A DNA stretch of 64,000 nt from Caldilineales bacterium (GTDB taxonomy: Bacteria; Chloroflexota; Anaerolineae; J102). How positions within the stretch are numbered: position 1 is the first letter of the stretch; the number at the start of each line of letters is the position of its first letter. The position numbers and the translations under genes were made by a program. Of this stretch, positions 623 through 57,503 are shown in pieces. Location of the stretch: NCBI GenBank assembly GCA_037443945.1, contig JBBINH010000001.1, positions 5,965 to 69,964 on the forward strand. The letters run 5' to 3'. The notes beneath the pieces are model-generated. The model did not search any database. It was not told the DNA's origin and was given only the letters and a program-made list of their open reading frames with translations.

Positions 623-3174
623 AAACGCGAGCCGCGGCCGGGATGCTTGGCCACGTGGATGCGCACGGGGAACTGCTCCTTGAGTTCGTCGATATGGGTG
701 ACGACGACGATAAGGGCGAATTCATCCTTGAGCATGTGAATCGCTTCGACCAGGTTTTCGCAGCCCTGGGCGTCTTGGGTACCGAATCCCTCATCGATGA
801 ACAGGGTTTGCAGGGCAGCGCCGGCGCGACGCGCGAGCAGTCGGCTCAGGGCAATCCGCAGGGCCAGGTCGGTACGGAAAGCTTCGCCTCCCGAAAACAT
901 CTCGTAGGGACGTTGGCCTAACTCGTCGGCGATGATGATGTCGAGCGTCTCGCGCAGGGCGCCGCTCTTCAGCTCGCGTTGCGTCTGTAAACGCACGCTC
1001 ATCCGGCCGTCGGTGAGGCGGGCCAACAGATAATTGGCCTCGGTTTCCAACTCAGGCAGGGCTGCTTCGATGATCAGGGCCTGGACCCCGCGCGGACCGA
1101 AAGCCTCGTGCAGGCGCTCGTAGCGGTTGACCCTAGCTTTGAGTTCGCCCAGCTCCTTTTCGCGGGCCGCCTTGGTCGTCACCAGGGCCGCACAGGCCTT
1201 CAACCGTTGTTCGGCGGCCACCCGCTGGGCCTGCGCCTTTTCCCAGGCCTGCTGCGCCTCCTCGCAGATCTGCTGTTGCCGATGCAGGCGGGTCTGGAGT
1301 TCGGGCAAGCCGCGTAACGCCTCATCCAACTCCTGCAGCATTTGCTGATCGGCCGCTAGCTGCGCCGCTTCGCGTTGTGCCCGTGCTTGCAGCTGATCGT
1401 ACTGCTCGCTCAGTTCGACGATCTGGCGTTGTGCCGTTTGCAACTCGGCATAGCGGCGTTCCAGACCCTCCAGATCGGAGATGGTGGCGCGGGCGACGGC
1501 ATGGGCTTGCTCATCATACGGGATGGCGGCCAGACGGCTCTCGATGTCGGTCAGCCGTGCCCGCACCTCAGGGGCAAAATCTCCCTGGATCAGCCGTCGC
1601 TCCCCTTCGCGCAGGCGTTCCTCCAGCTCGGGCAGGGCTTGTTGCGCCTGGCGCGCCTGTTGCAACGCCGCCTGCAGTTCGCCCAACAAACGCTCGACCC
1701 CGCTCAGCCGGGCGCTCTCGCGGTCGAGGGCCTTCAGCTCGGTTTGCAGCCGGGCTTCCTCGGCCTGGAGCTGGTTTCGGCGCGCTTTGCTGGCCGCATA
1801 ACGGCGGCGTAGCTCGTCCAGCGAACGGTTGTACTCCTGTTCAAGATGAAGCCGCCCGGTGGCATCCAGAGGCTGCCGACAGACCGGACAGGCATCGGCG
1901 CCACCGGCCTGAAGCAGGGCCAGGCGCTCTTTGAGGCTGCGGGCTTCGGCGTCCAGCGCCTGTTCTTCGGCCAGGCAACGCTCACGCTCGGCCGCCAGCA
2001 TGGCCAGTTGTTGTTGGATCGCCTGGCGTTGGTGGTGGAGTTGTTCCAACCGTTCGGCCTCGACCAGCCGTTGTGCGGTTTTGCTCTCCAGTTCGGGCAG
2101 GCTGCTGCTGCGTCGGAAGGCCTCGTCGCGCTCCCGGCGCAGCAGGCTCAGTTCGGTTTCGAGCCGGCTGCGGGCCCGGTCCAATTCGATCTGGAGACGT
2201 TGCCGCTCCTGTTCCAGGGGACGCCGGGCCTGGGCCTGGCGGGCCCAATACGCCTCCTGGCTGCGCGCCTGTTGCAGATCGGCATAGCCGGTCTCGATGA
2301 CCTGACGTTCGGCCAACAGGGCCTGGAGTTCGGCCAGGCGTTGTTGCACGCTTGCGAGCTGTTGTCGCGTTTCGGCGTGGGCAGCCTGGGCCTGTTGGAG
2401 CCGTTGCGCCAGGTCGCGGCGCCGATCCTGACGCATCAGGAGGGCCTGCTCGGCCGCGCGCAGGCGGGTAAGCTCTTGCTCGGCTTCGCTTTTGGCCAGA
2501 CGGGCCTGGGTCTCGGCCAGATGGGCACGCTCCAGGGCCTGCTCGTACTGCGGCCGCAGAGCCAGTTCCGCCTCCATGGCCCGGATTTCGCCCTCCAACC
2601 GCGCCGCCTCTTGGGCGACGGCGCGGGCCAGCACTTTGGCGCGTTCGGCGTAGGCATCGTAACGGCTCAGGTTGAGAATGCGGGCCAGGATGTCTTTGCG
2701 CTCCCCCGGACTCTTGCGGGTGAACGCATCGGCCTCGCCCTGCCTGAGAAAAGCCGAATGGCAAAAGGTCTCGTAGTCCATGCGCAGGATGGCTTCGATG
2801 CGCTCCTGGGTCTGCCGGATGGACGGTTCGGTGAGGGCCTGCCAAGCTGCCGCGCTGTCATCCCACACGGCCAGCTCCAACTCGCTGCGGCCCCGGCTGC
2901 CGATCAGCCGCTTGCGGATGATGTTATAACGCCGCCCGGCCAGACCGAATTCGAATTCCACCTGCATCTCGGCGGCGCCGGCATGGATGAGCTGGTCATC
3001 CGAGCGGGCGCGTGCTTTGCCCCACAAAGCCCAGGTGATGGCATCGAGCAGGGCCGATTTGCCGTGCCCGTTGTCACCGACCAGACAGACGAGGCGCATG
3101 CCGCGAAAATCGAGCGGCTCTAGGGTGTCGCGATAGCTGAGAAAGTTTTGCAGACGCAACTTGTAGGGTATCAT
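610..3174 (-). CDS. sbcC: SbcC/Rad50-family SMC-like ATPase
   Basis: N-terminal MIPYKLRLQNFLSY, Walker A GDNGHGKS, long coiled coil with CPVC zinc hook, signature FSGGE, Walker B LFIDEGFG. Start moved to ATG 3174. Confidence 0.93.
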   Translation of the reverse strand: MIPYKLRLQNFLSYRDTLEPLDFRGMRLVCLVGDNGHGKSALLDAITWALWGKARARSDDQLIHAGAAEMQVEFEFGLAGRRYNIIRKRLIGSRGRSELELAVWDDSAAAWQALTEPSIRQTQERIEAILRMDYETFCHSAFLRQGEADAFTRKSPGERKDILARILNLSRYDAYAERAKVLARAVAQEAARLEGEIRAMEAELALRPQYEQALERAHLAETQARLAKSEAEQELTRLRAAEQALLMRQDRRRDLAQRLQQAQAAHAETRQQLASVQQRLAELQALLAERQVIETGYADLQQARSQEAYWARQAQARRPLEQERQRLQIELDRARSRLETELSLLRRERDEAFRRSSSLPELESKTAQRLVEAERLEQLHHQRQAIQQQLAMLAAERERCLAEEQALDAEARSLKERLALLQAGGADACPVCRQPLDATGRLHLEQEYNRSLDELRRRYAASKARRNQLQAEEARLQTELKALDRESARLSGVERLLGELQAALQQARQAQQALPELEERLREGERRLIQGDFAPEVRARLTDIESRLAAIPYDEQAHAVARATISDLEGLERRYAELQTAQRQIVELSEQYDQLQARAQREAAQLAADQQMLQELDEALRGLPELQTRLHRQQQICEEAQQAWEKAQAQRVAAEQRLKACAALVTTKAAREKELGELKARVNRYERLHEAFGPRGVQALIIEAALPELETEANYLLARLTDGRMSVRLQTQRELKSGALRETLDIIIADELGQRPYEMFSGGEAFRTDLALRIALSRLLARRAGAALQTLFIDEGFGTQDAQGCENLVEAIHMLKDEFALIVVVTHIDELKEQFPVRIHVAKHPGRGSRFQVL

Positions 3175-3278
3175 TGCTCTGTTCTGTTGCGATCGCAATG
3201 GGACAAGGGGGAGGCAAGGCGCCCTTGTTGGGCCGGCAAAGTGTCTCCCAGTGTACCACACTCTTGAGGAGTCTGACC

Positions 3279-9015: not shown

Positions 9016-10752
9016 ATGTTCTCCGCGCGTGGTTTGTCCAAATGGCTGGGATTGCTGGCCGTCATCGGCTTTGCTGTCCTGAGCGTGGGATGTCGCCCAT
9101 CGCCTACGCCCACGCCTACCCCTACGCCGACGCCGTTCATTCCGCCCACACCGCCGCCAACGGCGGCCGATGTGGGGTTGGGACCGGCGCCAGTGACGAG
9201 TTTGGCCGTGGTTCATCAGCCTTTCGGCGATGGGGCCTGTGGGGCCTGTCATGATCTGCGAGGCTCCGACCCCAGGCAGATGTGGGGCGCAATCCAGGAG
9301 GTGTGCCGCCAGTGCCATTGGCAGGATGTGCCCGATCCGGATAGGCCCCTTGCCCATCCGCATGCGCCTTTTGCCCGCGGGGAGTGTCTAACCTGTCATC
9401 TGCCTCATGCCGGTGCCCATCCCAAGCTGCTGGTGGCACCGGTGACGCAGCTCTGTAACGATTGCCATCAAGACCACGGCGGCATCGTGCAGCAGCCCCA
9501 TCCGCAAGTAGCCCAGGGCGAGTGTAATCTCTGTCATCTTGCGCATGGTTCAATGCAGCCGGCCCTGTTGCGCCAACCGCAGAAAGTCCTGTGCGGCGTA
9601 TGCCATCCCGATCCGATCGATCCCCAGCGTAGTTTTGCTGCCCATGCCGAGGCTCCGGAGCTGACGTGTACGAGCTGTCATGCGCCTCATGATCCGGCGG
9701 CGCAACCGGCGCAAGTGACCCGCGCCATCTGTGTGACCTGCCATGCCGATCTGCCTGTGCCGGCGGATTTCCGCTTTCCTCACAAGCCTTTTGCCGAGGA
9801 GCGCTGCGCCGATTGCCATCCGTCGTTTCATCGGGATCCCGATAGACCGCTTCTGGCGGCTACACAGTCCCAATCGTGCAATGCCTGCCATGGCGATCAC
9901 GGCCTGGTGGTGACCCAGACCCATCCGCAGGTGGCCAAAGGCGAATGCCGTCTGTGCCACGATGGTCATGGCAGCAACCACCCCAACCAACTGGTCAGGC
10001 CCGAAATCGATATCTGTCAAAGCTGTCACGGTGAGGTATTCGCTGCGACCGCTTTTGCCGGCCATGCCGTCGCTCAATTGCCGGCCTGTACGAGCTGTCA
10101 TTCGCCCCACGTACCCCAAACGGCCGGTCCGGCCGTGGCCATGGCCTGCGCAACCTGCCATCAGGATATTCTGGCCGGCCGCAGTCAGCACAAGCCCGTG
10201 AGCCAGGGGGAGTGCAAGGCCTGTCACAGCGAGTTTCACGGTCAACAGCCGACACAACTGGCTGCGGTTCAGACGGTCTGCACCGATTGTCATCAGCTCG
10301 AAAAGGGCTCTATTGCGCATCCGCCCTATCAACAGGGCCGCTGTGAGACGTGTCATGTCGTGCACACCAGTCCGCATACGGCCCTGCTCAATCGCGCACC
10401 TACCCAATTGTGCGGCACCTGTCATGTCTCACAAACGGCCGCTTTCGGACGCAGCCGGCATGCCGCTCACCTGACCGCCCAATGCGCGGCCTGCCATCAG
10501 GCTCACGATGGCTCGATCGACAACCTGCTCCATGCCCGCACGAATGCGCTCTGTGATACCTGCCATCGCGATCTGCCGCACGGCTTCCATCCGGTCAGCG
10601 GGGGGCGCGATCCGGTGCGCGGAGGCGAATTGAGCTGTATCAGTTGCCATGCGCCTCATGGCAGCCCGCATCGGGCCGACCTGCGTGCGCCCGGTGACGG
10701 GCTTTGTCTGAGCTGCCATCGTTTCGAGCAGCCTCCTACAGCGCGAAGATAA
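9016..10752 (+). CDS. 22-heme c-type cytochrome lipoprotein (paired-CxxCH, DmsE/MtrA-like repeats)
   Basis: Lipobox LSVGC, PT-rich linker, 22 CxxCH motifs counted, many in doubled CxxCH..H..L..CxxCH units. Confidence 0.93.
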   Translation: MFSARGLSKWLGLLAVIGFAVLSVGCRPSPTPTPTPTPTPFIPPTPPPTAADVGLGPAPVTSLAVVHQPFGDGACGACHDLRGSDPRQMWGAIQEVCRQCHWQDVPDPDRPLAHPHAPFARGECLTCHLPHAGAHPKLLVAPVTQLCNDCHQDHGGIVQQPHPQVAQGECNLCHLAHGSMQPALLRQPQKVLCGVCHPDPIDPQRSFAAHAEAPELTCTSCHAPHDPAAQPAQVTRAICVTCHADLPVPADFRFPHKPFAEERCADCHPSFHRDPDRPLLAATQSQSCNACHGDHGLVVTQTHPQVAKGECRLCHDGHGSNHPNQLVRPEIDICQSCHGEVFAATAFAGHAVAQLPACTSCHSPHVPQTAGPAVAMACATCHQDILAGRSQHKPVSQGECKACHSEFHGQQPTQLAAVQTVCTDCHQLEKGSIAHPPYQQGRCETCHVVHTSPHTALLNRAPTQLCGTCHVSQTAAFGRSRHAAHLTAQCAACHQAHDGSIDNLLHARTNALCDTCHRDLPHGFHPVSGGRDPVRGGELSCISCHAPHGSPHRADLRAPGDGLCLSCHRFEQPPTARR

Positions 10753-10756: not shown

Positions 10757-13700
10757 ATGAAGCGTCTGTTCCTGCTCTGGATGACATGGGGCCTCCTCCT
10801 GGTGGCCCTGGCAGGGGGTAACCGTTTGGCGCCTATCGTCGCCGAACAAGGTGCGCCGTTCAATCCGCATGGTCGTTACAGCGCGGCAACGAACAGTTGC
10901 ACGGTTTGTCATGTACCGCATAGCCGTACAACCGATCCCGAGGCGGCCTGCCGCAGTTGCCATCCCCGGATCGTCACCCACAGGGAGCAGACCTGCGCCA
11001 CCTGCCATGCTCCCCACGGCAATACGCCCAATGCCGCCCTTATCCAGGCGGTGGTTCGCGGCAAACCCATGCGCTTTGACGGCAAAAACTTCGATGCCGC
11101 TGCCGATTCCATCTGCCGTACCTGTCACACCACCACGGCCTATCACAGCGCCACGGCCCGGAGCAGCCATTACGAGCAACAGCCTTGCACGAATTGCCAT
11201 CCCCACAGCGCCGGCTTTAGTCCCAATCCGGAGAACTGCGGGGCCTGCCACGGTTTTCCGCCTGCCAGTGGCGCCCATAATCGCCATCGCCAGGCCGATA
11301 TCGGTCTGACCGATTGCCAGGCCTGCCATCCGCAGGTGCGGAACTGGCGCGATCCAGGCCATTACAACGGGCGTGTTGATTTCAAGGACCGGGCCGTGCT
11401 GGCCACGACAGGCGTCTGTAATGCCTGTCATGGCAATGCCGCCGGCATCGCCGAAGCCAAGGCCAACTGGAGCCGTGGTCGCCCTCTGCAGGATTGTACC
11501 GGTTGCCACAACAGCACCCAACCAGGACGGCTGCGGGATCGGGTGGCGCCGGCCGTGGATGCGTTTTGGACGGTCAACGGCCATGGGCAGGGCCACGAGC
11601 AAGGCCGCGATCTGGATTGCCAGGCCTGTCACAATCCGCAGGCGCCTCATTTCGACACGGCCGGCAACCCCCGGTTGTGGGATACCCCGGCTGCCTTGTG
11701 CGCCCGTTGCCATCAGGACCCCGCTCGCGCCGGCGCCGATGTGAGCGCTCACGGCAACCAGGGCTACGCTCAGGCCACCCAACGGCCCTTCGGCGAGACC
11801 TGCGATGCGTGTCATAACCCCCATGGCAGCGCCAATCTGGCGGCCGTGCGCGCTGCTATCCGCGGCAAGACGGTGGTTTTCATCGCCCGCACCGGCGCCA
11901 ACAGCTTCGATTCCCCCAACGACGAGAACAGCCGCGATCTCTGCGCCACCTGTCATACCACGACCCGCCACAATCGTACACCCAGCAATCGCAGTCAGAC
12001 GCCCCATTACGAGGGGCAGGATTGTGGGCAGTGTCACAAGCATGAAACAGATGGCGATCCGCGCACGGCCGATGCCTTCATGCCCCAGGGCGGTTGTATG
12101 GCCTGCCATAGCGACCGGGTGGATAACGGCGATAACATTCCACCCGGTGGCCGCCCGGAGGTCGCCACGGACTTTGCCGGCCGCAGTCATCACATCAAGG
12201 GTGACCTGCTCGACGCCCGCTGTGTGGTCTGTCACGATATGGCCACCCACGGCGACGGCTATATTGACCTACGCCATCCCGACGGCGGGCCTGCTTTCCG
12301 TTTCCTCGAGGCCTCGGCTACCGATCTGACGGCTTTCTGCCAGGCTTGCCACGACGGCGACGGCAGCCGCGTGGCCAGGGTGCCCGGCGCGCAACCGGCC
12401 GATCCGTTCAACGAGGGCAGCGATCTGCTGGCCTTGCCGCCTACAAACACCCACAGCAATCGGGATGATGCCGGCCGCCAGGGCGAGGCGTTTAGCACGA
12501 CCTGCAACGAATGCCATGCCGGACACGGCAGCAGCAATCTGGCCCTGGTCCGCACGGCCATCCGTGGGCAGACGATTGTCTTCACCGCCCGCACCGGTGC
12601 GAATAGCTTCGACGACCCGGATAAGGATGACCGCAACGACCTTTGCGCCACCTGCCACATCGGGCGGACCCGTCTGCATCCGGGTGGCGACCATCGGCCG
12701 GCCGGCGACCTGGACCTGCGCGGGACCGATTGCACCACCTGTCACCGCCACGATGCCGATAACAGCCTTGCCACTCGCGATGGGTTTATGCCCTCGTGTG
12801 GGGCCTGCCATGGCAACCCGCCGCCGCCCGCCGGCAGTCCGCTCTACACTCTCAACGAGAACCTAACTCCGCACCGAAAGCATGCCGGCACCGGGCCGGG
12901 TGAATACGGTTTGGCCTGCAGTACCTGCCATAACCGGTTGGTGCCGTCCTACACTGGCCACGTGACCCGGCCGCCCAGCTTCCAGGATGTCTTCTTCGAT
13001 GCTCTGAATCCCATCGGCAGCTACGATCGCCAGACCCGCACCTGTGCTACCCTGGGTTGCCACAGCAATGGCAATCCCACCGGCGGCCAACTCATCTACC
13101 GCAATCCGGTATGGGCCGAAAACAGCCGTTTGGATTGCGCCGGCTGTCACGGCGATCAGGCCACGTTGGCGACCGGCAGCCACGCCGGGCATCTGTTGCC
13201 TTTCTATCGCGATCGTGGGGCCGATGCTATCGGTTGTTTCGAATGCCATGCCCTGACCGCCCAGAACAACGATAACAACGCCCTGGCCGATTTGCGCAAG
13301 CATGTCAACTTGACCAAGGATGTCCAGTTCGATGTGCGCGACTTGTGGGGGCGATCGGATAACGCCGTCTTCGATCCGAATACCCTCACCTGCGCCAATA
13401 GCCTGTGCCATTCGGATGGTGCGGCCAGCCGCGAACAACCCGATGTTCCCGTCTTCAGCACGCCCAAGTGGGGCGATCGGGCCAGCGGGACCTGTGGCAC
13501 CTGTCATAGTATCACGCCGCAGACGATGACCAGCGGCGCCCACGCGCGTCACTTCGATACCTCCAACCAGGGGCCGGGTATCACCTCGTGTAGCGATTGC
13601 CATAGTCCCTACGGCAGCACCCAACACGTCAACGGCAAAGTTGAATTCGCCGACGGCAAAACCCTGGCGCAGACCACGGTGTGCGATGCCTGCCATAGCC

Positions 13701-14506
13701 CCGGTGGCGGTTTCGACGGCGTAGCCGAAGCGCGCGCGAACTGGGCTACAAGCCGTCCGGTCCGGTGCGAAGGCTGCCATGATGCCCAACCCGCTGTGGT
13801 CCGGGGTGTGACCGCCCCCAACGTGGCCGGCGACGGCCGTACGTACGGCTTTGCCCTCGGCGGACATGGGCGTCTCGGCTTTACCTGCGCCACCTGCCAT
13901 GAGAAGGGGCCCAACAGCATTCACTTCGACGGCGTGGCCCGGACCTATACGGCGGCCGCCGACAACCTGGAAGCCGCCAAATGGCTGGGATTGGGTGGCT
14001 TGAAAGTGCCTATTACCGCCGAGGATCCCTACGTTCGGACCCACTACGCCCAGTGCTACGTCTGCCATCTCGAGGCGAACACGGTAGGTTTGGGACCGGG
14101 CTACAGCAATGCGCTGTTCACGCATAGCGTGCCCCCACCGCCGGGCTATCCTCTAATCGTGGATACGGTTGTCACCCGCTTCCGCAACGAACGGCCCGAA
14201 GGCTTCAACTTCGGCAACGTTCCGGCCAACATCCACTGGGACCACCTAGATATGAACATGGTGAACTGGGATAGCGATGGCGATGGCACGATGGACTCCA
14301 AGCCCTCGTGTGTGACCTGTCATGACCCGCACGGGGTCAAATCCTTCGCCGATGGTGTCACCTATCCGGCCATGACGATCGCCGACATGGGTATCGTCCA
14401 CGGCCAGGATGCTATCGGCGCCTACGGCGAGGTAACACAAACGGCCTACAACAACCGCTGTCGCACCTGTCATCCCGCTGCCGGTATCCGCTATTATCGA
14501 CCGTGA
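10757..14506 (+). CDS. giant secreted multiheme cytochrome c (32 CxxCH + 2 CxxxxCH)
   Basis: Sec-type signal peptide; motifs hand-counted; CATLGCH...CAGCH and CANSLCH...CGTCH resemble the Geobacter CxxxxCH...CxxCH domain. Confidence 0.93.
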   Translation: MKRLFLLWMTWGLLLVALAGGNRLAPIVAEQGAPFNPHGRYSAATNSCTVCHVPHSRTTDPEAACRSCHPRIVTHREQTCATCHAPHGNTPNAALIQAVVRGKPMRFDGKNFDAAADSICRTCHTTTAYHSATARSSHYEQQPCTNCHPHSAGFSPNPENCGACHGFPPASGAHNRHRQADIGLTDCQACHPQVRNWRDPGHYNGRVDFKDRAVLATTGVCNACHGNAAGIAEAKANWSRGRPLQDCTGCHNSTQPGRLRDRVAPAVDAFWTVNGHGQGHEQGRDLDCQACHNPQAPHFDTAGNPRLWDTPAALCARCHQDPARAGADVSAHGNQGYAQATQRPFGETCDACHNPHGSANLAAVRAAIRGKTVVFIARTGANSFDSPNDENSRDLCATCHTTTRHNRTPSNRSQTPHYEGQDCGQCHKHETDGDPRTADAFMPQGGCMACHSDRVDNGDNIPPGGRPEVATDFAGRSHHIKGDLLDARCVVCHDMATHGDGYIDLRHPDGGPAFRFLEASATDLTAFCQACHDGDGSRVARVPGAQPADPFNEGSDLLALPPTNTHSNRDDAGRQGEAFSTTCNECHAGHGSSNLALVRTAIRGQTIVFTARTGANSFDDPDKDDRNDLCATCHIGRTRLHPGGDHRPAGDLDLRGTDCTTCHRHDADNSLATRDGFMPSCGACHGNPPPPAGSPLYTLNENLTPHRKHAGTGPGEYGLACSTCHNRLVPSYTGHVTRPPSFQDVFFDALNPIGSYDRQTRTCATLGCHSNGNPTGGQLIYRNPVWAENSRLDCAGCHGDQATLATGSHAGHLLPFYRDRGADAIGCFECHALTAQNNDNNALADLRKHVNLTKDVQFDVRDLWGRSDNAVFDPNTLTCANSLCHSDGAASREQPDVPVFSTPKWGDRASGTCGTCHSITPQTMTSGAHARHFDTSNQGPGITSCSDCHSPYGSTQHVNGKVEFADGKTLAQTTVCDACHSPGGGFDGVAEARANWATSRPVRCEGCHDAQPAVVRGVTAPNVAGDGRTYGFALGGHGRLGFTCATCHEKGPNSIHFDGVARTYTAAADNLEAAKWLGLGGLKVPITAEDPYVRTHYAQCYVCHLEANTVGLGPGYSNALFTHSVPPPPGYPLIVDTVVTRFRNERPEGFNFGNVPANIHWDHLDMNMVNWDSDGDGTMDSKPSCVTCHDPHGVKSFADGVTYPAMTIADMGIVHGQDAIGAYGEVTQTAYNNRCRTCHPAAGIRYYRP

Positions 14507-15636
14507 CCGATCGGGCTTCGTTTCGCATGCGTTGGTATCATCTGTTTTGGATACTGTGGCCGGTGGTCCTGTTGGGGTCGGCGGCCATGGCCCATGCGCA
14601 GGCCGATCCCAATGCTGCCTGTCTGGTCTGTCATAGCGTGCCCGGCCGTGAAGCCCTGCTCGCCAGTGGTGAACATCTGCCGCTCTACGTGAACGGCGAT
14701 GTCTACCGCCTGTCGGTGCACGGGCAAATGCAATTGCCCTGTACGGCCTGTCATACCCGCATTACGGGCTTTCCCCACGATCCGTTGCTCGCTTTCGACC
14801 GCCGCGATTATCAGCTCGACCATTACGGGGTCTGCCGGAATTGTCATCCCGAGGTCTACGAAGCCACCCTGGATTCGATGCACGCGCGGGCCCTGGCTGC
14901 CGGCCGTCGCGAAGCGGCGATTTGTACCGATTGCCACGGTGCTCATGACATCACCTCGCCCCACAGCCCGCGTCAGAAGATTTCGCTGACCTGCAGTAAG
15001 TGCCATGCCTTTATCTTCGAGCAATACAAGGAGAGCGTTCACGGCGCCGCCTTGCTCGAGGAAAGCAACCCGGATGTCCCTACCTGTGTCGATTGCCACG
15101 GCGTTCATAACATCGAGGACCCGACTACGGCGGCTTTTCGGTTGCGCTCGCCCGAAATCTGCGGGGAATGTCACCGCAACGAGGCCCTGATGAGCCAATA
15201 CGGCATCTCGACGGCGGTGTTCAATACCTATGTTGCCGATTTCCATGGGACTACCGTCACGCTGTTCCAACGTCAACACCCCGATCAGCCGACGAACAAG
15301 GCGGTTTGCTTCGATTGCCACGGCATCCATAACATCAAAGCCGTAGATGATCCGGAAGCCACGGTGGTCAAGGAGAATCTGCTGGAGACTTGTCGTAAAT
15401 GCCATCCCGATGCCGATATTAACTTTCCGGCCTCGTGGACCAGCCATTATATCCCCGACCGCAACCGCTACCCTTTGGTGTACTATGTCAATCTGTTCTA
15501 CCGGATCATCATTCCCGGTACCATCGGCTTTATGCTCGGCTTTGTTGTGTTGGATGCTTTTCGGCGTGTGTTGATGCGGACGCGTCGACAACGGGTCGTC
15601 AAACAGGCTTCCGTAGAGGCCGATCATCATGAGTGA
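14503..15636 (+). CDS. nonaheme cytochrome c with C-terminal TM anchor (CbcL/CbcA-like c domain)
   Basis: Signal peptide, 9 CxxCH, C-terminal hydrophobic helix. GTG 14503 overlaps the upstream stop; ATG 14527 is an alternative start. Confidence 0.88.
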   Translation: MTDRASFRMRWYHLFWILWPVVLLGSAAMAHAQADPNAACLVCHSVPGREALLASGEHLPLYVNGDVYRLSVHGQMQLPCTACHTRITGFPHDPLLAFDRRDYQLDHYGVCRNCHPEVYEATLDSMHARALAAGRREAAICTDCHGAHDITSPHSPRQKISLTCSKCHAFIFEQYKESVHGAALLEESNPDVPTCVDCHGVHNIEDPTTAAFRLRSPEICGECHRNEALMSQYGISTAVFNTYVADFHGTTVTLFQRQHPDQPTNKAVCFDCHGIHNIKAVDDPEATVVKENLLETCRKCHPDADINFPASWTSHYIPDRNRYPLVYYVNLFYRIIIPGTIGFMLGFVVLDAFRRVLMRTRRQRVVKQASVEADHHE

Positions 15637-16972
15637 GCAACCCCGACAGGAGTATGTCCGCTTTAGCCGGACCGACCGCATCGAGCATTTTCTGTTGATG
15701 ACATCGTTCACGGTGCTGGTGATCACCGGGCTGCCGCAGAGGTATGTCTCGGCGTCGTGGGCCGAGTTTTTGATCGAGCTGATGGGCGGCATCGAGACGG
15801 TGCGCATCATCCATCGCGTGGCGGCCATCGTGCTCATCCTCGAGAGCATCTTTCATATCATCACCGTTTCCTATAAGCTGTTCGTGCGGCGGGTCTCGCC
15901 GTCCATGTTGCCCACCTTGCAGGACTTCGTGGATTTTCTCGATGCCCTGCGCTATAACCTGGGCCTGGCCAGACGACGACCCCAGTACGACCGTTACAAT
16001 TTCGAGGAAAAAATCGAGTATTGGGCCGTCATCTGGGGCACGGCGGTGATGATCATCACCGGCTTTATGCTGTGGAACCCGATCACCACGACGAAATTTC
16101 TACCGGGTAGCTGGATCCCGGCGGCCAAGGCGGCCCATGGCGGTGAGGCTTTGCTGGCCTTCTTGGCCATTATCGTCTGGCACGTCTATAACGTCCATAT
16201 CAAGACCTTCAACCGGAGCATGTTCACCGGCAAACTCAGCCGGGAGGAGATGCTGCACGAACATCCGAAGGAGTTGGAACGCATCGAATCGGGCAGGGTA
16301 CGGCCCGAGCCGCCGCGCGAGATCATCCGTCGGCGTGAGCGGATTTTCCTTCCTATAGCCGGTCTGTTTGCCGTTTTGGCGTTGGTCGTGATGTACTTTT
16401 TTGTCACCTACGAAGAAACGGCCATTGCCACGGTACCGACCCCGGCCGAGCGAGCTGCCGTCTTTGTTCCGGCTACGCCGGTGCCAACCACCGAAGCGGA
16501 CGTGCGGCTGGCGCTTTCGCGGAGGCAGGCGCAGCCCATCCCTCATGCCATCAGCGCCGGCCGTGAGAACTGTCTGGCCTGTCATGGGCTGGGGACGCTT
16601 TCGCCTTATACGCCTATCCATGCCAATTTGCGGTTGGGCAACGAGACCTGTCTGGGATGTCATCAGCCGATGCCGGGGGCAACCGCATTACCCGACAACA
16701 TCGCCGTGCCGGGCTTCTCGACCGAGATTTTGCCCATCTTGCGGCGTCGTTGTGTGGTTTGCCATAACCCCGCCACGCCGTTGGATCTGACCAGCTATCG
16801 GAGCATCATGCGGGGAGATGGCAAAGGCCCGCTTGTGATTCCCGGCGCCGCCGGGCAGAGTCGGTTGTTGACTCTGGGCGGGCTTCCGGTGGAGGTGCAT
16901 CCCAGTCGGTTTACTCCCGAGGAAATGGCCCGCATCGGTGCCTGGATCGATGCCGGCGCTCCGGAGAACTAA
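15629..16972 (+). CDS. cytochrome b (FdnI/HyaC-type, CbcL/CbcB-like) fused to three c-type heme motifs
   Basis: RFSRTDRIEH, IIHRVAA, YNFEEKIEYWA, AHGGEALLA, WHVY b-heme domain; C-terminal CLACH, CLGCH, CVVCH. Confidence 0.88.
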   Translation: MSEQPRQEYVRFSRTDRIEHFLLMTSFTVLVITGLPQRYVSASWAEFLIELMGGIETVRIIHRVAAIVLILESIFHIITVSYKLFVRRVSPSMLPTLQDFVDFLDALRYNLGLARRRPQYDRYNFEEKIEYWAVIWGTAVMIITGFMLWNPITTTKFLPGSWIPAAKAAHGGEALLAFLAIIVWHVYNVHIKTFNRSMFTGKLSREEMLHEHPKELERIESGRVRPEPPREIIRRRERIFLPIAGLFAVLALVVMYFFVTYEETAIATVPTPAERAAVFVPATPVPTTEADVRLALSRRQAQPIPHAISAGRENCLACHGLGTLSPYTPIHANLRLGNETCLGCHQPMPGATALPDNIAVPGFSTEILPILRRRCVVCHNPATPLDLTSYRSIMRGDGKGPLVIPGAAGQSRLLTLGGLPVEVHPSRFTPEEMARIGAWIDAGAPEN

Positions 16973-16984: not shown

Positions 16985-18577
16985 ATGATTCGCCGTTTTC
17001 GCCTCTGGTTTCGCCAACACTGGCAAAAGGCCCTGGGAATCGCTTTTGCCCTCACCGTCCTCGGTTTGGTTGTTTTTGTCATCGGGGTGACAGCTTGGGA
17101 GTACACGAACAGCCCTGAGTTTTGCGGTGCCACCTGTCACACCATGCCCCCGGAGTACATCGCCTATCAGCAATCGCCCCACGCCCGTGTGGCCTGTGTG
17201 GACTGTCATCTGGGGCAGGAGTCGGTGCTCTATGCTATCCCGCGTAAGGCCAGGGAGGTACGTCACGTCGTTTTTGCGCTCACCCAGGATTACGAAATCC
17301 CGATCTATGTCAAAAGCATGCGGCCGGCTCGCGACACGTGCGAGAAATGTCACGACCCGGAGAAATCCTCGCTGGACAGCGTGCGTACCATTACCCGCTA
17401 CGCTACCGATGCGACCAACACCCCGACCGTCATTCATCTGATCCTCAAAACCGGTGGCGGATCGAAACGCGAAGGCCTGGGGCGCGGCATCCACTGGCAT
17501 ACGGTCAATCAGGTTTACTTCCTGACCACCGATCCGCTCAAACAGAACATCCCCTATGTCAAAGAAGTTCGGGATGACGGTTCGGTGGTTGAGTATTTCG
17601 ATCTGGAAAGCGGCATTACACCGGCCGAGGTGGCAGCCCGCAGCAGCGAATTGCACTTGATGGATTGTATCGATTGTCACAATCGGGTTTCCCATCGCTT
17701 CGCCAAGCCCGATATCGCCGTGGACGAGGCCATCACCCGTCGTCTCATCGATGGCTCCCTTCCGCAAATCAAGCAGAAGGCGGTAGAGTTGCTCTCACAA
17801 CCGTCCGGGACGCGTGCCGAGTCGTTGGCCCAGATCGAGGCCCTGGCGGCCTGGTATGAGCAAAACTACCCCGAGGTATATGCGACCCGCCGCGAGGCCA
17901 TCGACCAAGCCATCGCCAGCCTGAAACGCATTTTCGAGTCCATTTACTTCCCCGATATGGCCGTAGGCTGGAGCACGCACCCTGACAACCTGGGCCATCT
18001 CAACTTCCCCGGCTGTTTCCGCTGCCATGACGGCAAACATACCAGTCCCGATGGGCAGACGATTCGGCTGGAGTGCAACATTTGCCATACCATTCCGCGT
18101 GTGACCGGGCCGGGCTTACCGTCCCCTGTGATCAACCTGGTGCCGGCCAACGAACCCGAATCGCACAAAGACAGCAACTGGCTGGCGCGGCATCGCTATG
18201 AGTTCGATGCCACCTGCGCCGGTTGCCATAGCACCTTTAATCGCGGCGGCAGCGATAACAGTTCCTTCTGCGCCAACAGTGCCTGTCACGGCATCCGCTG
18301 GCAATTTGCCGGGTTGGATGCACCGGGTCTGCGGGCCATTTTGCCCCCGCCTGCAACCTCAGAAGACGAAACGGCACCGACGGAGGAAGAGCAACCCGGT
18401 TTTGTACCCCTGATTCCGCATCCCCTTGGTGAGGAACGCATCGGCCAGTGCCGTACCTGCCACGGCCTGCGCGGCCTGAGGCCTTATCCCGAGTATCATG
18501 AGGAGTTTCCCCTTCAGGCCTGCACCGAATGCCACAAGCTGGCACCGATGCTACGAGGACAAACCTCGTTGCGATGA
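16985..18577 (+). CDS. NapC/NirT-family multiheme quinol dehydrogenase (ImcH-like), 10 heme motifs
   Basis: N-terminal TM, YTNSPEFCGATCH, CVDCH, CEKCH, LKTGGG..GIHWH; 8 CxxCH plus CxxxCH and CxxxxCH. Confidence 0.88.
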   Translation: MIRRFRLWFRQHWQKALGIAFALTVLGLVVFVIGVTAWEYTNSPEFCGATCHTMPPEYIAYQQSPHARVACVDCHLGQESVLYAIPRKAREVRHVVFALTQDYEIPIYVKSMRPARDTCEKCHDPEKSSLDSVRTITRYATDATNTPTVIHLILKTGGGSKREGLGRGIHWHTVNQVYFLTTDPLKQNIPYVKEVRDDGSVVEYFDLESGITPAEVAARSSELHLMDCIDCHNRVSHRFAKPDIAVDEAITRRLIDGSLPQIKQKAVELLSQPSGTRAESLAQIEALAAWYEQNYPEVYATRREAIDQAIASLKRIFESIYFPDMAVGWSTHPDNLGHLNFPGCFRCHDGKHTSPDGQTIRLECNICHTIPRVTGPGLPSPVINLVPANEPESHKDSNWLARHRYEFDATCAGCHSTFNRGGSDNSSFCANSACHGIRWQFAGLDAPGLRAILPPPATSEDETAPTEEEQPGFVPLIPHPLGEERIGQCRTCHGLRGLRPYPEYHEEFPLQACTECHKLAPMLRGQTSLR

Positions 18578-18826: not shown

Positions 18827-18856
18827 TTGACACATTGTTCGTACACCATGTATAAT
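18827..18856 (+). promoter_or_regulatory. consensus sigma70 promoter of the Rieske/cytochrome b operon
   Basis: TTGACA (18827-18832), 18-bp spacer, TATAAT (18851-18856). Confidence 0.8.
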
Positions 18857-19020
18857 TCGCTCCTGAGTCTCGGTCGATTATGGCCGAGCACGCTCGAGAT
18901 AGATTGCAATCGATGGTCCGGTCTGTAGCGGACGTGAGACAAAAAGGCTAAAGCTTTTGCCTGTCTCACGCCCTTTTGTTTTATTCTACTTTCATCCTCT
19001 GTGGTCAAGGCGTGTAACTT

Positions 19021-19857
19021 ATGGCTGATACCGAGACGAAACCCCCTGTGACAACCGGAAAAGAAGCGTTCGTGGCATCCGCCGAGGGCCGCGTGGCCGA
19101 GCGTCGGCGCGGCGGCGATACCACCGGAGTCTCCGCCGATCGTTCGGATGGTGAAGAAGGCGGCATCAGCGAAGCAGCAAAACGTTTCCAGGCCCTGAAG
19201 CAAGGTCAGGCTTTGAAGCAAAGCCGCAAAGAGCGCGAGGCTGCCCTGTTGCGCCGGGCCGTTGATATCGCTCCACGCGTGAGTGCCGAGAGTTTACCCG
19301 AAGCCCAACCGCAAAAGGCGCCTTCGCTACCTATCAACCGCCGCGAATTCCTGACCTATGCCTGGGGCGGTGCCCTGGCCCTGGTTTTAGCGCAGGGCGG
19401 ACTGGCCACCCTGTGGTTTGCCTATCCGCGCTTTAAGGCGGGTGAATTCGGCGGTGTCTTTACCCTCACGAGTATCCCGGAGCGGGGCGCTAAACCTGTC
19501 GAGAATTTGCAGGGTAAGTTCTGGTGGACGAATGCCGAAGAAGGCGGGATAATAGCGCTGTATAAGGTCTGCACCCATCTGGGTTGTCTGTACGAGTGGA
19601 AAGACCAGACCCGTCGTTTTGAATGTCCTTGTCATGGTTCCAAGTTTAATCAATCCGGTCGCGTCATTCATGGACCGGCGGCTCGTGACTTGGATCAATT
19701 TGTCGTTACCGTCCTGGATAGCAACGGTAACCAGGTCGATCAAACCACACCCGATCACCGTTATGTTCTTGCCGGTGAAGGACTGACTTACAAGATCGAC
19801 ACCGGTCGTAAGATTCAGGGTCGGCCTGCTGACCCTGCTCTGGCTGTGGAGGCATGA
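19021..19857 (+). CDS. petC: Rieske [2Fe-2S] subunit of a Rieske/cytochrome b complex
   Basis: Tat-like NRREFL plus TM, CTHLGC and CPCHGS boxes, GPAARDL. Confidence 0.93.
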   Translation: MADTETKPPVTTGKEAFVASAEGRVAERRRGGDTTGVSADRSDGEEGGISEAAKRFQALKQGQALKQSRKEREAALLRRAVDIAPRVSAESLPEAQPQKAPSLPINRREFLTYAWGGALALVLAQGGLATLWFAYPRFKAGEFGGVFTLTSIPERGAKPVENLQGKFWWTNAEEGGIIALYKVCTHLGCLYEWKDQTRRFECPCHGSKFNQSGRVIHGPAARDLDQFVVTVLDSNGNQVDQTTPDHRYVLAGEGLTYKIDTGRKIQGRPADPALAVEA

Positions 19858-19860
19858 GTT

Positions 19861-21471
19861 ATGGTTGGTCAAGATATTCGCAGCCGTGGACTACGCGGTT
19901 ATCTCGGCGCCAAGGCCGACAGCGTCTTCGAACGCATCACGGCCGGCATTCCCTGGCGCGATTTCCGGAAGATGCTGCGCGGGGATCCCCCCGATCGTCC
20001 GAATCCACGCCTGAAACCCCATTCCGAGTCGTTTTGGCTGCATATCAAGCCCACCTACTATCACGAATCGGTCACGCACTTCACCCATACCTTTCGGTTG
20101 GGATTGCTGAGCACCTATCTGTTCGTGGTGGAGCTGATTACCGGTCTCATTTTGATGATCTGGTACGCGCCCACGCCTGAGCGGGCTTATGCGGATATGA
20201 TACGTTTGCTATCCAATGTGCCGTTTGGGCAATTGATGCGCGATATTCATCGTCTGGGCGCAGAGGCCATGGTGATCGTCGTGGTTCTGCATATGTTTCG
20301 GACCTTCTTAACCGGTTCGTACAAAAAACCGCGACAGTTCACCTGGGTGACCGGGGTGGTGCTGCTCATCGCCACGCTTTTCCTGAGCTTTTCCGGCTAT
20401 CTTCTGCCCTGGGACCAGCTGGCCTTCTGGGCCGTGACCATCGGTACGAGCATGGCCGAGGCCTCGCCGACACCGCCGGGCGCCGGCTGGATCGGCACCA
20501 TGCTGTTCGGTACTTCCGACTGGGTGGGTCAATTCGTCAACCTGTTGTTGCGTGGGGCACCCGACATCGGTGCCGGCGGGTTGCTGCGCTTCTATCTGCT
20601 CCATATCTTCTTCTTGCCGCTGGTTGTTATCTTCTTCTTCTTCTTCCACTACTACAAGGTGGTCCATTTCGGCATTTCCTTGCCGGCGAAGGAGGAAGAA
20701 GTCGGTCAGGATACGGCCAACCGGGTGCCGGCCGATAAACGGCGCTATTACCTGATGGACATCGCCATTGACGAGATAGCCCTGCTTTCGGTGGTCACTT
20801 TCGTTCTGGTAGCGATGTCTGCCTTTTTCTATGATGCCAAGTTGGAACACATTGCCAATCCCCTGAAGACACCACTGCATACGACGGCACCCTGGTATTT
20901 CTACTGGCTCCAGGGTTTGCTCAAGATCGGCAACAAAGTGTTTTGGGGCTTGATTGTGCCCGGGATCATGATTTTCCTCACCTTTGCGCTACCGTATCTC
21001 GATTACAATCCCAGTCGTCGCGGGAAGGACCGTCGTTATGCTCTGGTAGCCGGCTTTCTCTTCGCCTCTTGGATCGTGGTCCTCTCCTTCATGGGCCTGC
21101 CCCTCTATGCCGTGCAATCCCCGCCGGCCGAAGAGGTGGTTCAAGAGTTCATGCCCGAAGAAGGGGTCGGCCCCATCCGTGAGATCCCCTGGTCTGAGCT
21201 GGAAATCGGCGTGTATGACACACGGACCTTTGAAGGGAGTGTGCCCTACTCCGAGTTCGAGCAGGTTATCCTGGACTTCAAGGAGCGCATTGCCCGAGAC
21301 CCCGGTTTGCCCAACGGCAGCGGTATTATCACCGTTGAAGCGGCCGGTCCGGGTTTGAAACGAATCAAGTTCCAGATCGATTACACCGATATCGACGGGA
21401 AGCCGGCTCAGTTTATCAAGACCTTCTATCTGCACGAGAGTTCGCTCTATTGGGAGCAATTCACCTTCTGA
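19861..21471 (+). CDS. petB: cytochrome b subunit (b6 plus subunit IV fused) of a Rieske/cytochrome b complex
   Basis: Heme-b histidines in RDIHR, VLHMFR, LLHIFF, FFHYY; [14 protein letters not shown]; Qo motif APWY. Confidence 0.93.
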
Positions 21472-21486
21472 GGAGGCTCACTCCCG

Positions 21487-22617
21487 ATGTACGGTGTATC
21501 CCGTCTTGTCATTGCGACCATGGCGCTCGTGGGCACTTTTGTCGTCGTGCTGCTGACGGCGGCACAGGAACCGGCTCGCATGGAGCGCTATGCGGCCAAT
21601 TTCCACGGCCGCGAGATGGAAGTGGGTGCCCAGATTTATTTCGAGGCCTGTGCCGTCTGTCATGGTCAACACGGCGAAGGGCTGGTCGGTCCGGCCCTCA
21701 ACTCGGCCGATTTGCTGCTACCCGCGCCCGGACAAACGCGTCCTCCACGCTTGCTGGCTAAGAATTACCTGGGGGACTTGCGCAGCTATCTCGAAGGCAC
21801 TATCACCTACGGTCGGCCCGGCACGGCCATGCCTGCCTGGGGACAGGCGGCGGGCGGACCCTTCCGCCCCGATCAGATTGCCGCTGTAGCGACCTTTATC
21901 ATGAATTGGGGACTCGACCCCGGCAAACAGTGGGGCGGCGCATCCGAGCGCGTGGCCATCGGCGGCGTTGAACCGGTACTCGTGACGCCCGCCGTGTCGA
22001 TGGCAACCCCACCCCCTCGCAATGTCCGCAGTGTGGAGCTGGGTAAGTATCTCTTCAACGGCCCGGCCGGCTGTGCCGAATGCCATACCTTCGACATCGC
22101 CACCGGCAAAACCGGCCCCGACCTGACGAACATCGTCCAAACCAAGGGCCGCGATTATGTGCGCACCTCCATCGTCGACCCCAACGGCATGGTGGCACCT
22201 GACCATGCTCCGAGTGTGATGCCGCAAACCTTTGCCTTTGCTCTGACCGACATCGAGCTGGAGTCCATCATCGATTACCTGGAGAATCCGGCGGCCGCAG
22301 CCCAGGAAGCGACTCCGGCACCGGCAGCACCGCTGGACGGCAAGCAGGTAGCCCAAAGCGCCGGTTGTCTTGCCTGCCATTCGGTGGATGGCTCCGCCCT
22401 GGTCGGACCGACCTGGCAAGGTCTTTTCGGTCACGAGGTCGAGTTGGAAGATGGCAGTAAAGTGATCGCCGACGAGGCGTATTTGCGCGAATCCATCCTC
22501 AATCCTGCAGCCAAGATCGTCAAGGGTTACCAGAATCTGATGCCCGCCAACTACGAGCAACTGCTAACCCCGGAGCAGATCACGGCCATTATCGAGTACA
22601 TCAAGCTTCTGCAATAG
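21487..22617 (+). CDS. membrane-anchored triheme class I cytochrome c
   Basis: N-terminal TM; CAVCH, CAECH and CLACH each in a class I domain; last domain GPTWQGL...YLRESI..P. Confidence 0.9.
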   Translation: MYGVSRLVIATMALVGTFVVVLLTAAQEPARMERYAANFHGREMEVGAQIYFEACAVCHGQHGEGLVGPALNSADLLLPAPGQTRPPRLLAKNYLGDLRSYLEGTITYGRPGTAMPAWGQAAGGPFRPDQIAAVATFIMNWGLDPGKQWGGASERVAIGGVEPVLVTPAVSMATPPPRNVRSVELGKYLFNGPAGCAECHTFDIATGKTGPDLTNIVQTKGRDYVRTSIVDPNGMVAPDHAPSVMPQTFAFALTDIELESIIDYLENPAAAAQEATPAPAAPLDGKQVAQSAGCLACHSVDGSALVGPTWQGLFGHEVELEDGSKVIADEAYLRESILNPAAKIVKGYQNLMPANYEQLLTPEQITAIIEYIKLLQ

Positions 22618-22644
22618 GGTACGAGCCCTTGCCGCCTCTCCGCA

Positions 22645-22679
22645 GCCGCCTATCCGTTCCGGATGGGCGGCTTTTTTTT
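22645..22679 (+). terminator. rho-independent terminator
   Basis: GCCGCCTATCCG-TTC-CGGATGGGCGGC followed by 8 T. Confidence 0.9.
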
Positions 22680-54135: not shown

Positions 54136-54237
54136 GACTCGGTCCTCTCTTTTGTTGGTGAGAACGTTTGAACGTTAGAACGTTTGAACGTTATGCCTGC
54201 CTGCCCCTCTTGCGCCAACACACTCCGGAACCGAGTC
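54136..54237 (+). mobile_element. MITE-like element, copy A (102 bp)
   Basis: Ends GACTCGGTCC / GGAACCGAGTC, flanked by direct repeat CAACGATT (54128-54135, 54238-54245); one more 8-bp internal repeat unit than copy B. Confidence 0.85.
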
Positions 54238-54244
54238 CAACGAT

Positions 54245-54273
54245 TTGACAATGGCCGGCGCTTCTGTTACATT
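54245..54273 (+). promoter_or_regulatory. sigma70 promoter of the cobalamin operon
   Basis: TTGACA (54245-50)-N17-TACATT (54268-73) with a TGn extension. Confidence 0.75.
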
Positions 54274-54298
54274 TCCGACGCTCAACCGATATCTCCCG

Positions 54299-54420: not shown

Positions 54421-54472
54421 CGCCACCACCTGCGCGGACAGGCTCGGTGGTTGCAAGGCCTGCAGTCCATGC

Positions 54473-54502: not shown

Positions 54503-54549
54503 GTGCCTTCCCCGCCGCATCCTGTCTCGCACGTTCTCCGGAGGCTCCG

Positions 54550-57483: not shown

Positions 57484-57503
57484 GGGGCCGATTGGCAGCG
57501 ACC

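Follow-up and report, generated by a model that had tools for sequence, protein, structure and literature searches.

A giant 34-heme mosaic cytochrome in a conserved five-gene cluster of Caldilineales, and a candidate role in extracellular electron transfer

We analyzed a window of 64,000 nucleotides (nt) from the genome of a Caldilineales bacterium of the phylum Chloroflexota (GenBank assembly GCA_037443945.1, contig JBBINH010000001.1), which was recovered from a subsurface metagenome. The window includes five closely packed genes on the forward strand, and all five products are cytochromes, with 78 c-type heme sites over the five (Table 1). Our subject is the second of these genes, which encodes a c-type cytochrome with a signal peptide and 34 heme-binding motifs.

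The initial annotation had described this open reading frame (ORF) as a 34-heme cytochrome of 1249 amino acids (aa), and our motif count agrees: there are 32 CxxCH motifs and two CxxxxCH motifs (CATLGCH at C763 and CANSLCH at C879), and all 68 of the cysteines lie inside them. (There are 78 histidines in total.) The protein contains no CxxxCH or CxxCK motif, and the only matches to long-spacer heme motifs such as CX15CH are coincidental overlaps. When we shuffled this same protein 2000 times, the average number of motifs was 0.46 and the maximum was 6, so 34 sites are far beyond chance. Long antisense ORFs are present across the gene, which is the usual by-product of a G+C content of 64%; the many homologues and domain matches of the forward-strand ORF show that this one is the genuine gene.

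The protein begins with a Sec-type signal peptide, whose cleavage site we read from the sequence by eye, and it has no lipobox cysteine, no further transmembrane (TM) segment, and no free cysteine. These features predict that it is exported and extracytoplasmic, and it may lie beyond the membrane surface. The mature apoprotein would have a mass of about 131 kDa and has 36 aa per heme.

We located repeats by comparing each 150-aa segment with the remainder of the protein, with the segment itself masked (BLASTP). (Self-BLAST of the unmasked protein returned the identity match alone.) Family A has two clear copies, A1 and A2 (residues 321-450 and 549-684; 45% identity over 138 aa, E = 4e-26), and a degenerate third copy, A' (residues 78-150 against 347-429; 39% identity, E = 5e-13). 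Family B has copies at residues 160-300 and 912-1058 (39% identity over 152 aa, E = 1e-23), and family C, which comprises the CxxxxCH modules, has copies at residues 743-832 and 854-950 (29% identity over 99 aa, E = 2e-8). The repeat of A1 and A2 is also visible in the DNA, where 11797-11955 matches 12499-12657 (159 nt, 70% identity, with a spacing of 702 nt).

The motif strings listed in the initial annotation largely fit these copies. The A-family string is found at residues 349-400 and 583-634, with the degenerate third copy near the N-terminus, and the CxxxxCH..P.W..CxxCH string is found at 763-798 and 879-917. The B-family string matches B2 exactly (957-1008), but B1 has one extra residue relative to the pattern as it was written. 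The DSDGDG loop that had been noted near the C-terminus is present, and D1172, S1173, D1174, and G1177 are invariant in the alignment of homologues; judging from its DxDxDG-type sequence, this loop may bind calcium.

Table 1. Features of the 34-heme cytochrome gene, its operon, and the rest of the window. Positions are those of the window; residues in brackets are those of the 34-heme protein.
Feature	Position	Strand	Remarks
34-heme secreted c-type cytochrome gene	10757-14506	+	ATG start, 1249 aa
Sec-type signal peptide (1-19)	10757-10813	+	MKR, hydrophobic core, cleavage between ALA and G; from sequence and hydropathy
Module A' (78-150)	10988-11206	+	degenerate A copy, 39% identity to 347-429
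Module B1 (160-300)	11234-11656	+	c7-like/TIGR01904-like, first site CxxCH; TIGR01904 21.7 bits, below cut-off
Module A1 (321-450)	11717-12106	+	4 hemes, doubled-CXXCH type, IRGxxVVFxARTGANSFD; TIGR01905 27.2 bits
234-aa/702-nt six-heme unit (447-680)	12095-12796	+	segment X and most of A2; without counterpart in P0010 and P0017
Module A2 (549-684)	12401-12808	+	second clear A copy, 45% over 138 aa; TIGR01905 26.9 bits
Module C1 (743-832)	12983-13252	+	CxxxxCH (C763, nt 13043-13063)...P.W...CxxCH; TIGR01904 41.6 bits
Module C2 (854-950)	13316-13606	+	CxxxxCH (C879, nt 13391-13411)...P.W...CxxCH; TIGR01904 46.5 bits
Module B2 (912-1058)	13490-13930	+	second B copy; TIGR01904 29.7 bits, passes
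C-terminal triheme domain (1059-1249)	13931-14503	+	191 aa; conserved NxHWDHL...WDSDxDGxxDSxxxCxxCHDPHG, terminal YYRP
DSDGDG (1172-1177)	14270-14287	+	DxDxDG-type, putative Ca-binding loop, 8 residues ahead of heme site C1185
22-heme lipoprotein	9016-10752	+	578 aa, 22 CxxCH; lipobox LSVGC, then Pro/Thr linker
9-heme cytochrome	14503-15636	+	377 aa, 9 CxxCH; signal peptide, C-terminal TM anchor
FdnI/HydC-type cytochrome b	15629-16972	+	447 aa, 5 TM, then extracytoplasmic 3-heme c domain
ImcH-like/NapC-NirT-type cytochrome	16985-18577	+	530 aa, 10 sites, 1 TM (residues 17-35 of this protein)
Separate neighbor unit	18827-22672	+	own promoter and terminator
Sigma-70 promoter	18827-18856	+	TTGACA-18-TATAAT, 12/12 consensus; upstream of Rieske gene
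Rieske	19021-19857	+	in separate downstream unit
Cytochrome b	19861-21471	+	ExtP model 208.9 bits, below cut-off 290
Triheme class-I cytochrome c	21487-22617	+	in separate downstream unit
Strong terminator	22644-22672	+	13-bp stem, T8 tail; after triheme cytochrome c gene
SbcC-like ATPase	610-3261	-	housekeeping context
PriA	50933-53725		housekeeping context
SCO2321-family and SCO2322-family membrane proteins	54184-60247		both below cut-off; adjoin duplicated ECF-transporter (energy-coupling factor) ATPase
Exonuclease VII large subunit	62119-63321		housekeeping context

Both of the family models that the initial annotation had put forward, TIGR01904 and TIGR01905, match above their cut-offs. 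The whole protein scores 75.7 bits against TIGR01904 (NCBIfam cut-off 27), and among the individual modules, C1, C2, and B2 also pass (Table 1). Because B2 passes and B1 just fails, the B modules look like diverged TIGR01904 domains whose first site has turned into CxxCH. The corresponding Pfam family, PF09698 (GSu_C4xC__C2xCH), scores 40.2 bits on the whole protein and 27.9 and 37.2 bits in the modules (cut-off 21.7). Each of the two pairs consists of a CxxxxCH site and, no more than about 30 residues after it, a CxxCH site (C763-H769 then C794-H798, and C879-H885 then C913-H917), and both pairs are invariant in 14 homologues. By these sequence criteria the protein can be assigned to the TIGR01904 domain class. 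TIGR01905 matches A1 and A2 (cut-off 25.2), although its score for the whole protein is below the cut-off (16.8 bits), and PF09699 (the doubled CXXCH domain) scores 69.4 bits on the whole protein (cut-off 20.6). Overall, the Pfam matches are Cytochrome_C7, MtrC/MtrF II-IV, c3_2, Paired_CXXCH_1, and GSu_C4xC__C2xCH, and the MtrC/MtrF domain II/IV model scores 90.6 bits on residues 217-363. The domain scores and the repeats together bear out the description of the protein as a mosaic of repeated modules that include Geobacter-type CxxxxCH/CxxCH domains. Two parts remain without a specific family: residues 451-548 match nothing above threshold in Pfam or NCBIfam, and the C-terminal 191 aa match no NCBIfam family and, in Pfam, just the generic Paired_CXXCH_1, marginally (22.7 bits, cut-off 20.6).

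A homologue search found about 17 full-length or near-full-length relatives (42-71% identity). The named ones are all from metagenome-assembled genomes (MAGs) of Caldilineales, Caldilineae, or Chloroflexi and are titled 'CxxxxCH/CxxCH domain-containing protein'. In a scan with one genome per species, about 15 species-level MAGs contain the orthologue, and every one of them belongs to Chloroflexota; Anaerolineales and Planctomycetota gave partial matches. The distribution of homologues, which had been proposed as a check on the initial annotation, is therefore narrow for full-length orthologues, which are confined to these Caldilineales/Chloroflexota MAGs. Plasmid records, searched by tblastn, gave no match.

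The heme sites are strikingly constant among these relatives. Nine orthologues of about 1250 aa each have exactly 32 CxxCH and two CxxxxCH motifs, 68 cysteines, and no free cysteine. This conservation suggests that all 34 sites, including both CX4CH sites, are occupied by heme. Across 12 homologues that span the full length, 38 histidines that are not proximal ligands are invariant, and no methionine is. With 38 invariant spare histidines for 34 hemes, there are enough to provide a second histidine ligand at every heme. Because these histidines are invariant and no methionine is, the hemes are probably there for electron transfer and not for catalysis: the alignment suggests that they are mostly bis-histidine (bis-His), low-spin hemes without an open catalytic site. 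An N-terminal PHG motif is also conserved, and the C-terminal YYRP tail is strictly conserved.

The C-terminal 191 aa are rare. At E <= 0.001, they match 68 of 1.84 billion representative clusters. In other giant cytochromes the domain can be N-terminal, central, or C-terminal, and the matching proteins range from about 100 to about 2700 aa. The last 345 residues (B2 and the C-terminal domain, with its YYRP end) recur as a unit in other phyla, sometimes twice per protein, where they adjoin NHL repeats, a cadherin-like domain, or a subtilisin domain. These partners are extracellular-type domains. One planctomycete protein that contains this supermodule (34% identity; L020, 10163-17061, on the Phycisphaerales chromosome CP070827.1) is encoded at a distance of about 4 kb from genes whose products are homologous to the 9-heme protein (28%) and the FdnI-type cytochrome b (35%) that are encoded beside the 34-heme gene in our window. 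(We refer to these two proteins as the CbcL-like pair, as explained below.) The association of the supermodule with the CbcL-like pair may extend beyond Chloroflexota.

The C-terminal domain is poor in heme (3 sites), has conserved histidine and aspartate residues (NxHWDHL and DSDGDG), and has no assigned family, as might be expected if the 34-heme protein were a soluble enzyme in which one heme is catalytic (of the nitrite, hydroxylamine, sulfite, or tetrathionate type) and the others form an electron-delivery tail. We give this explanation hardly any credence. The 34-heme protein has no CxxCK site, it reaches the cut-off of none of the catalytic multiheme families of Pfam and NCBIfam, and enough distal histidines are conserved. 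The weak matches below threshold are to NrfH, NrfB, and c554-type proteins, which are electron-transfer proteins. The occurrence of the C-terminal domain at the start, middle, or end of other giant cytochromes also speaks against an enzyme.

The relatives also differ in which modules they contain. Two of them (P0010 and P0017; 1016 and 1046 aa), with 28 sites each, have no counterpart of residues 447-680/681 and thereby six hemes fewer. The gap corresponds to one repeat period, because its 234 aa equal the 702-nt period in the DNA. This six-heme stretch appears to be a unit of duplication or deletion. At the other extreme, P0013-P0015 (1772-1777 aa) have 54 sites (51 CxxCH, two CX4CH, and one CX3CH). 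They carry an insertion of 513-517 aa after an N-terminal membrane anchor, and the inserted part is homologous to the 22-heme protein that is encoded just upstream of the 34-heme protein in our window (34% identity, E = 2e-60). At the junction, the C-terminus of the 22-heme type leads into the 'PHG.YS....C..CH' start of the 34-heme protein, whose internal signal peptide has been lost. This natural fusion would fix the order of the 22-heme and 34-heme parts. In one MAG, an extra gene lies between the 22-heme and 34-heme genes (L012, 7404-9587); its product (P0126; 727 aa, 29 CxxCH) is a chimera, with an N-terminal part of about 320 aa that is similar to A' and B1 and a C-terminal part that is similar to the 22-heme protein. 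This looks like further evidence for module shuffling. Because modules have been gained, lost, and fused and recur elsewhere, "mosaic" is an accurate label. With its versions of 28, 34, and 54 sites, the family is a clean case of the evolution of multiheme cytochromes by the gain and loss of whole modules.

Structure prediction gave models of low confidence. With an alignment of 53 sequences, AlphaFold2 modeled residues 45-1244 with a mean predicted local distance difference test (pLDDT) score of 58 and a predicted template modeling (pTM) score of 0.34, and a Foldseek search of the PDB with this poor model returned nothing. For residues 905-1249, with a hand-trimmed alignment of 22 sequences, the pLDDT was 59 (70-89 for B2 and below 50 for the C-terminal domain), and Foldseek with this poor model returned only noise. 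By sequence, a PDB search with the single protein found only cytochrome c7 (E = 0.006), and a search with the family profile found 6R2Q chain A (E = 1.5e-6) and NrfH, both weakly. We take 6R2Q chain A to be the decaheme MtrA of MtrCAB. (In our local copy of the PDB it is labeled 'Cystathionine beta-synthase', which looks wrong, as the aligned sequence is a decaheme cytochrome.)

The initial annotation had also raised the idea of a filament-forming wire, in which the 34-heme protein would polymerize into an extracellular nanowire as OmcS, OmcE, and OmcZ do. The protein is secreted and dense in heme, and its YYRP tail and N-terminal PHG motif could in principle dock head to tail. Nothing that we found indicates polymerization, and we consider it very unlikely. 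Known cytochrome filament subunits are small, with 4-8 hemes. We found no match to them in the PDB by sequence, or by fold with our low-confidence models (pLDDT 58-59). Because the 38 invariant spare histidines outnumber the 34 hemes, no ligand from another subunit is needed. Finally, the N-terminus is where the 22-heme partner is fused, which argues for docking to a different protein instead of to another copy of itself.

The other genes of the operon fit with electron transfer to the outside. The gaps between the five genes are 4, -4, -8, and 12 nt: the 22-heme gene ends 4 nt ahead of the 34-heme gene, and the start of the 9-heme gene overlaps the stop of the 34-heme gene by 4 nt. Our scan of the window found no convincing terminator between them. 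The order of the five genes is kept in 11 related loci and is permuted in the locus L003, which is of the fusion type. We found no gene for a porin or other beta-barrel in the cluster in our window or in the gene lists of L001-L003.

The 9-heme protein and the cytochrome b together resemble CbcL. In Geobacter, CbcL has nine CxxCH motifs and a HydC/FdnI-like diheme b-type membrane domain (PMC6295460). Compared with this published description, the pair of 377 and 447 aa has both features, but they are split over two genes and there is an extra 3-heme domain. The 447-aa cytochrome b matches TIGR01583 with E = 4.9e-16, which is below the cut-off, and matches Ni_hydr_CYTB from Pfam above the cut-off (54.8 bits). 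Its residues from about 300 to 447 comprise the fifth TM segment and the C-terminal 3-heme domain, which matches PSCyt1, the model for planctomycete cytochrome C, with 23 bits (cut-off 22). For the FdnI-type b family, this extension by a helix and a 3-heme domain is unusual.

The last gene of the operon encodes an ImcH-like protein. ImcH is described as a NapC/NirT-like protein of about 500 aa with an N-terminal TM segment, an adjacent atypical CX3CH site, and 5-9 further CxxCH sites, and the homologue from Anaerolinea has one TM segment (PMC6295460). By this description, the 530-aa protein shows all of the listed features, with a single TM segment like the Anaerolinea homologue and with 10 sites: a CX3CH site (CGATCH at C47, 12 residues past the predicted TM segment), eight CxxCH sites, and one CX4CH site. 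Its N-terminal matches are of the NrfH/NapC type. The CX4CH site (CANSACH at residue 429) is nearly the same as the CANSLCH site in module C2 of the 34-heme protein. In another Caldilineales MAG (L016, 495-5890), which lacks the CbcL-like pair, the ImcH-like gene comes directly after the 34-heme gene. It thus seems that one membrane module can occur without the other. With quinol-dehydrogenase-like neighbors and a 22-heme lipoprotein that is fused to it in some genomes, the 34-heme protein is in a setting that fits a role in extracytoplasmic electron transfer.

We propose, and regard as somewhat better than an even bet, that in this Caldilineales host, which presumably has a single membrane, electrons leave the cell by a porin-free multiheme conduit whose distal, extracytoplasmic part is the 34-heme protein. 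Menaquinol would be oxidized in the membrane by two alternative modules, the split CbcL-like pair and/or the ImcH-like 10-heme cytochrome. Electrons would then pass to the 22-heme lipoprotein, which would be tethered to the membrane by its lipid anchor and Pro/Thr linker, and from there onto the secreted 34-heme protein at its N-terminal end. The hemes of the 34-heme protein, closely spaced and mostly bis-His, would carry the electrons tens of nanometers across the wall or surface layers. The acceptor would be extracellular or insoluble; examples are humics, Fe(III) or Mn(IV) minerals, and a partner cell. The 34-heme protein might be the terminal reductase, as the initial annotation had suggested. 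The sequences show the gene with its conserved sites and repeats, the export and anchor signals, the operon, and the fusion; we infer that the sites are occupied by heme, which ligands they have, how the early partners are ordered, that the flow is outward, and what accepts the electrons.

We favor this conduit because all 34 sites are conserved in a protein that has an export signal, no anchor, and a wire-like density of heme; because the gene belongs to a packed and syntenic five-gene module with quinol-oxidase-like neighbors; because some genomes encode the 22-heme and 34-heme parts as one continuous polypeptide (Rosetta-stone fusions); and because proteins of other phyla combine these modules with domains of extracellular type and the sequence has a subsurface source. 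We also count in its favor that the cluster contains no porin gene and that Chloroflexi relatives are regarded as monoderm (PMC5808234). Low ratios of amino acids to hemes have been discussed as a feature of conductive wires (PMC5566968), and a 27-heme protein from Geobacter has been modeled at about 350 Angstrom (PMC11492766). By analogy, a chain of 34 hemes could, if extended, span the wall and a surface layer.

With 34 redox centers on one polypeptide and 78 c-hemes over the five products, the 34-heme protein might instead mainly store charge at the cell surface and buffer swings in the supply of acceptors in a facultative organism. Such a role has been proposed for the large cytochromes of PCC3, a type of porin-cytochrome cluster in Fe(II)-oxidizing Proteobacteria (PMC10734462). 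We think it quite unlikely that this is the main function. Storage of charge is compatible with the conduit and does not exclude it, and the fusion with the tethered 22-heme protein and the quinol-oxidase-like coupling suggest that electrons pass through.

The only serious rival to the outward conduit is a flow of electrons in the other direction: the source of electrons would be a syntrophic partner, a cathode-like surface, Fe(II), or reduced minerals, and the 34-heme protein would take them up and pass them to the 22-heme protein and on to the membrane modules and a bc-type complex. Genes for a Rieske protein, a cytochrome b, and a cytochrome c lie directly downstream of the operon in our window and in L001/L005, L006, L010, and L013, which are the closer relatives only. 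Moreover, modules of the CbcL/MtoC/MtrH type occur not only in Fe(III) reducers but also in Fe(II) oxidizers (PMC6295460), the PCC3 of Fe(II) oxidizers pairs cytochromes of about 21 and about 34 hemes (medians; PMC5566968), which is near the 22 and 34 hemes here, and a relative within the Chloroflexi, Ardenticatena, transfers electrons both anodically and cathodically (PMC5808234). On the other side, the ImcH family was known only from reducers as of 2018 (PMC6295460). Because the Rieske/b/c unit has its own consensus promoter and terminator, it is a transcription unit apart from the multiheme operon, and it is absent downstream in L002, L003, L007, L008, and L012. The named matches to the proteins of our locus include no detectable homology to PCC3 proteins, and the window contains no Cyc2 gene and no carbon-fixation genes. 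On balance, we consider inward flow unlikely.

Several considerations weigh against the outward conduit as a whole. The flow may run in either direction, as CbcL/MtoC-type modules are also present in Fe(II) oxidizers and the Rieske/cytochrome b/cytochrome c unit is next door in the closest relatives. The resemblances to CbcL and ImcH are architectural only. All of the carriers are uncultured MAGs, so that the envelope type and the physiology are assumed, and the poor AlphaFold models do not demonstrate a linear chain of hemes. We also looked for RNA runs as evidence of expression and found none.

We tentatively suggest a more specific version of the conduit, which is possible but which we would bet against. 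The 22-heme and 34-heme proteins, docked end to end in the way that the natural fusions with 54 sites suggest, might form a single porin-free wire of about 56 hemes and tens of nanometers, as a distinct solution in Chloroflexota for a single-membrane envelope or sheath, with the C-terminal triheme/DxDxDG domain as the module that contacts the acceptor. If this is true, then surface wires might also pass electrons from cell to cell along filamentous Caldilineales.

The initial annotation had suggested that the non-canonical heme motifs may need a dedicated heme lyase, and this idea found no support. General maturation systems can process CX4CH sites, and such sites occur in cytochrome c3 from Desulfovibrio. 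Among the larger ORFs of the window that we scanned (at least 200 aa), we found no cytochrome-maturation gene of the ccm/ccs/resBC type or otherwise. CX4CH is also listed among known heme motifs (PMC11492766). The remaining genes that we identified in the window are mostly housekeeping genes (Table 1).

We found no paper that combines Caldilineales with multiheme cytochromes and none on this orthologue group, the five-gene module, the fusion, or the C-terminal domain. A survey from 2021 reported that Chloroflexi of the Anaerolineae type carry many cytochromes with at least 20 hemes and with homology to the Geobacter CxxxxCH model, and proposed that they function in extracellular electron transfer (bioRxiv 10.1101/2021.08.23.457424). 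Ardenticatena has cytochromes with no more than 7 hemes, which differ from this protein in size (PMC5808234).

The giant CxxxxCH/CxxCH cytochromes of Geobacter and other Desulfuromonadia, such as the predicted extracellular 27-heme wire cluster (PMC11492766), have in common with the 34-heme protein the TIGR01904 domain, a secreted polypeptide that bears a very large number of hemes, and modular repeats. In contrast to these, the similarity in sequence is low (23-29% identity over partial lengths for Geobacter/Desulfuromonadales proteins of the same named class), and the 34-heme protein has only two true CxxxxCH sites and B modules that bear CxxCH, adds A-type doubled-CXXCH modules and the rare C-terminal domain, and presumably works in a host with a single membrane. 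For none of these Geobacter proteins has a function been demonstrated.

PCC3 (He et al. 2017, PMC5566968; PMC10734462) has an inner cytochrome of about 21 hemes, an outer cytochrome of about 34 hemes (medians), and a b-type membrane protein. As in our pair, the cytochromes are rich in repeats and have few amino acids per heme. Unlike PCC3, our locus has no porin gene, and its membrane parts are FdnI-like and ImcH-like instead of the 5-TM protein of PCC3. We also looked for kinship with PCC3 through the homologues of the 22-heme protein; the matches are generic doubled-CXXCH cytochromes from many phyla, with no names from Gallionellaceae or Leptothrix. For MtrCAB from Shewanella (6R2Q), the weak profile match to chain A and the Pfam MtrC/MtrF II/IV matches amount to a generic likeness in heme packing; in contrast to MtrCAB, there is no beta-barrel partner, we detected no split-barrel domains like those of MtrC, and the 34-heme protein is about three times larger.

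For bacteria without an outer membrane, detailed knowledge of how respiratory electrons cross a thick envelope comes from essentially a single genus, Thermincola, which uses several proteins with 6-10 hemes each. The Gram-positive chain of Thermincola (ImdcA, PdcA, CwcA, and OcwA; PMC7911101, PMC6703420) follows the same concept as the conduit that we propose, a series of multiheme proteins across the wall with no outer membrane or porin. Our PDB searches found no sequence similarity to OcwA, and here two very large proteins (22 and 34 hemes, sometimes fused) would do the job. Chloroflexota are abundant in the subsurface, sediment, and wastewater, and their cytochromes with at least 20 hemes are without an assigned pathway. 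This locus is a concrete, conserved, and self-contained candidate pathway, from two quinol-oxidase-like modules to a tethered 22-heme protein to a secreted 34-heme protein, and it draws attention to a triheme domain without annotation whose structure would be worth solving. In comparison with these known systems, the 34-heme protein is not a new principle; it is an uncharacterized case of the giant secreted multiheme cytochromes that are found in clusters of the extracellular-electron-transfer type.

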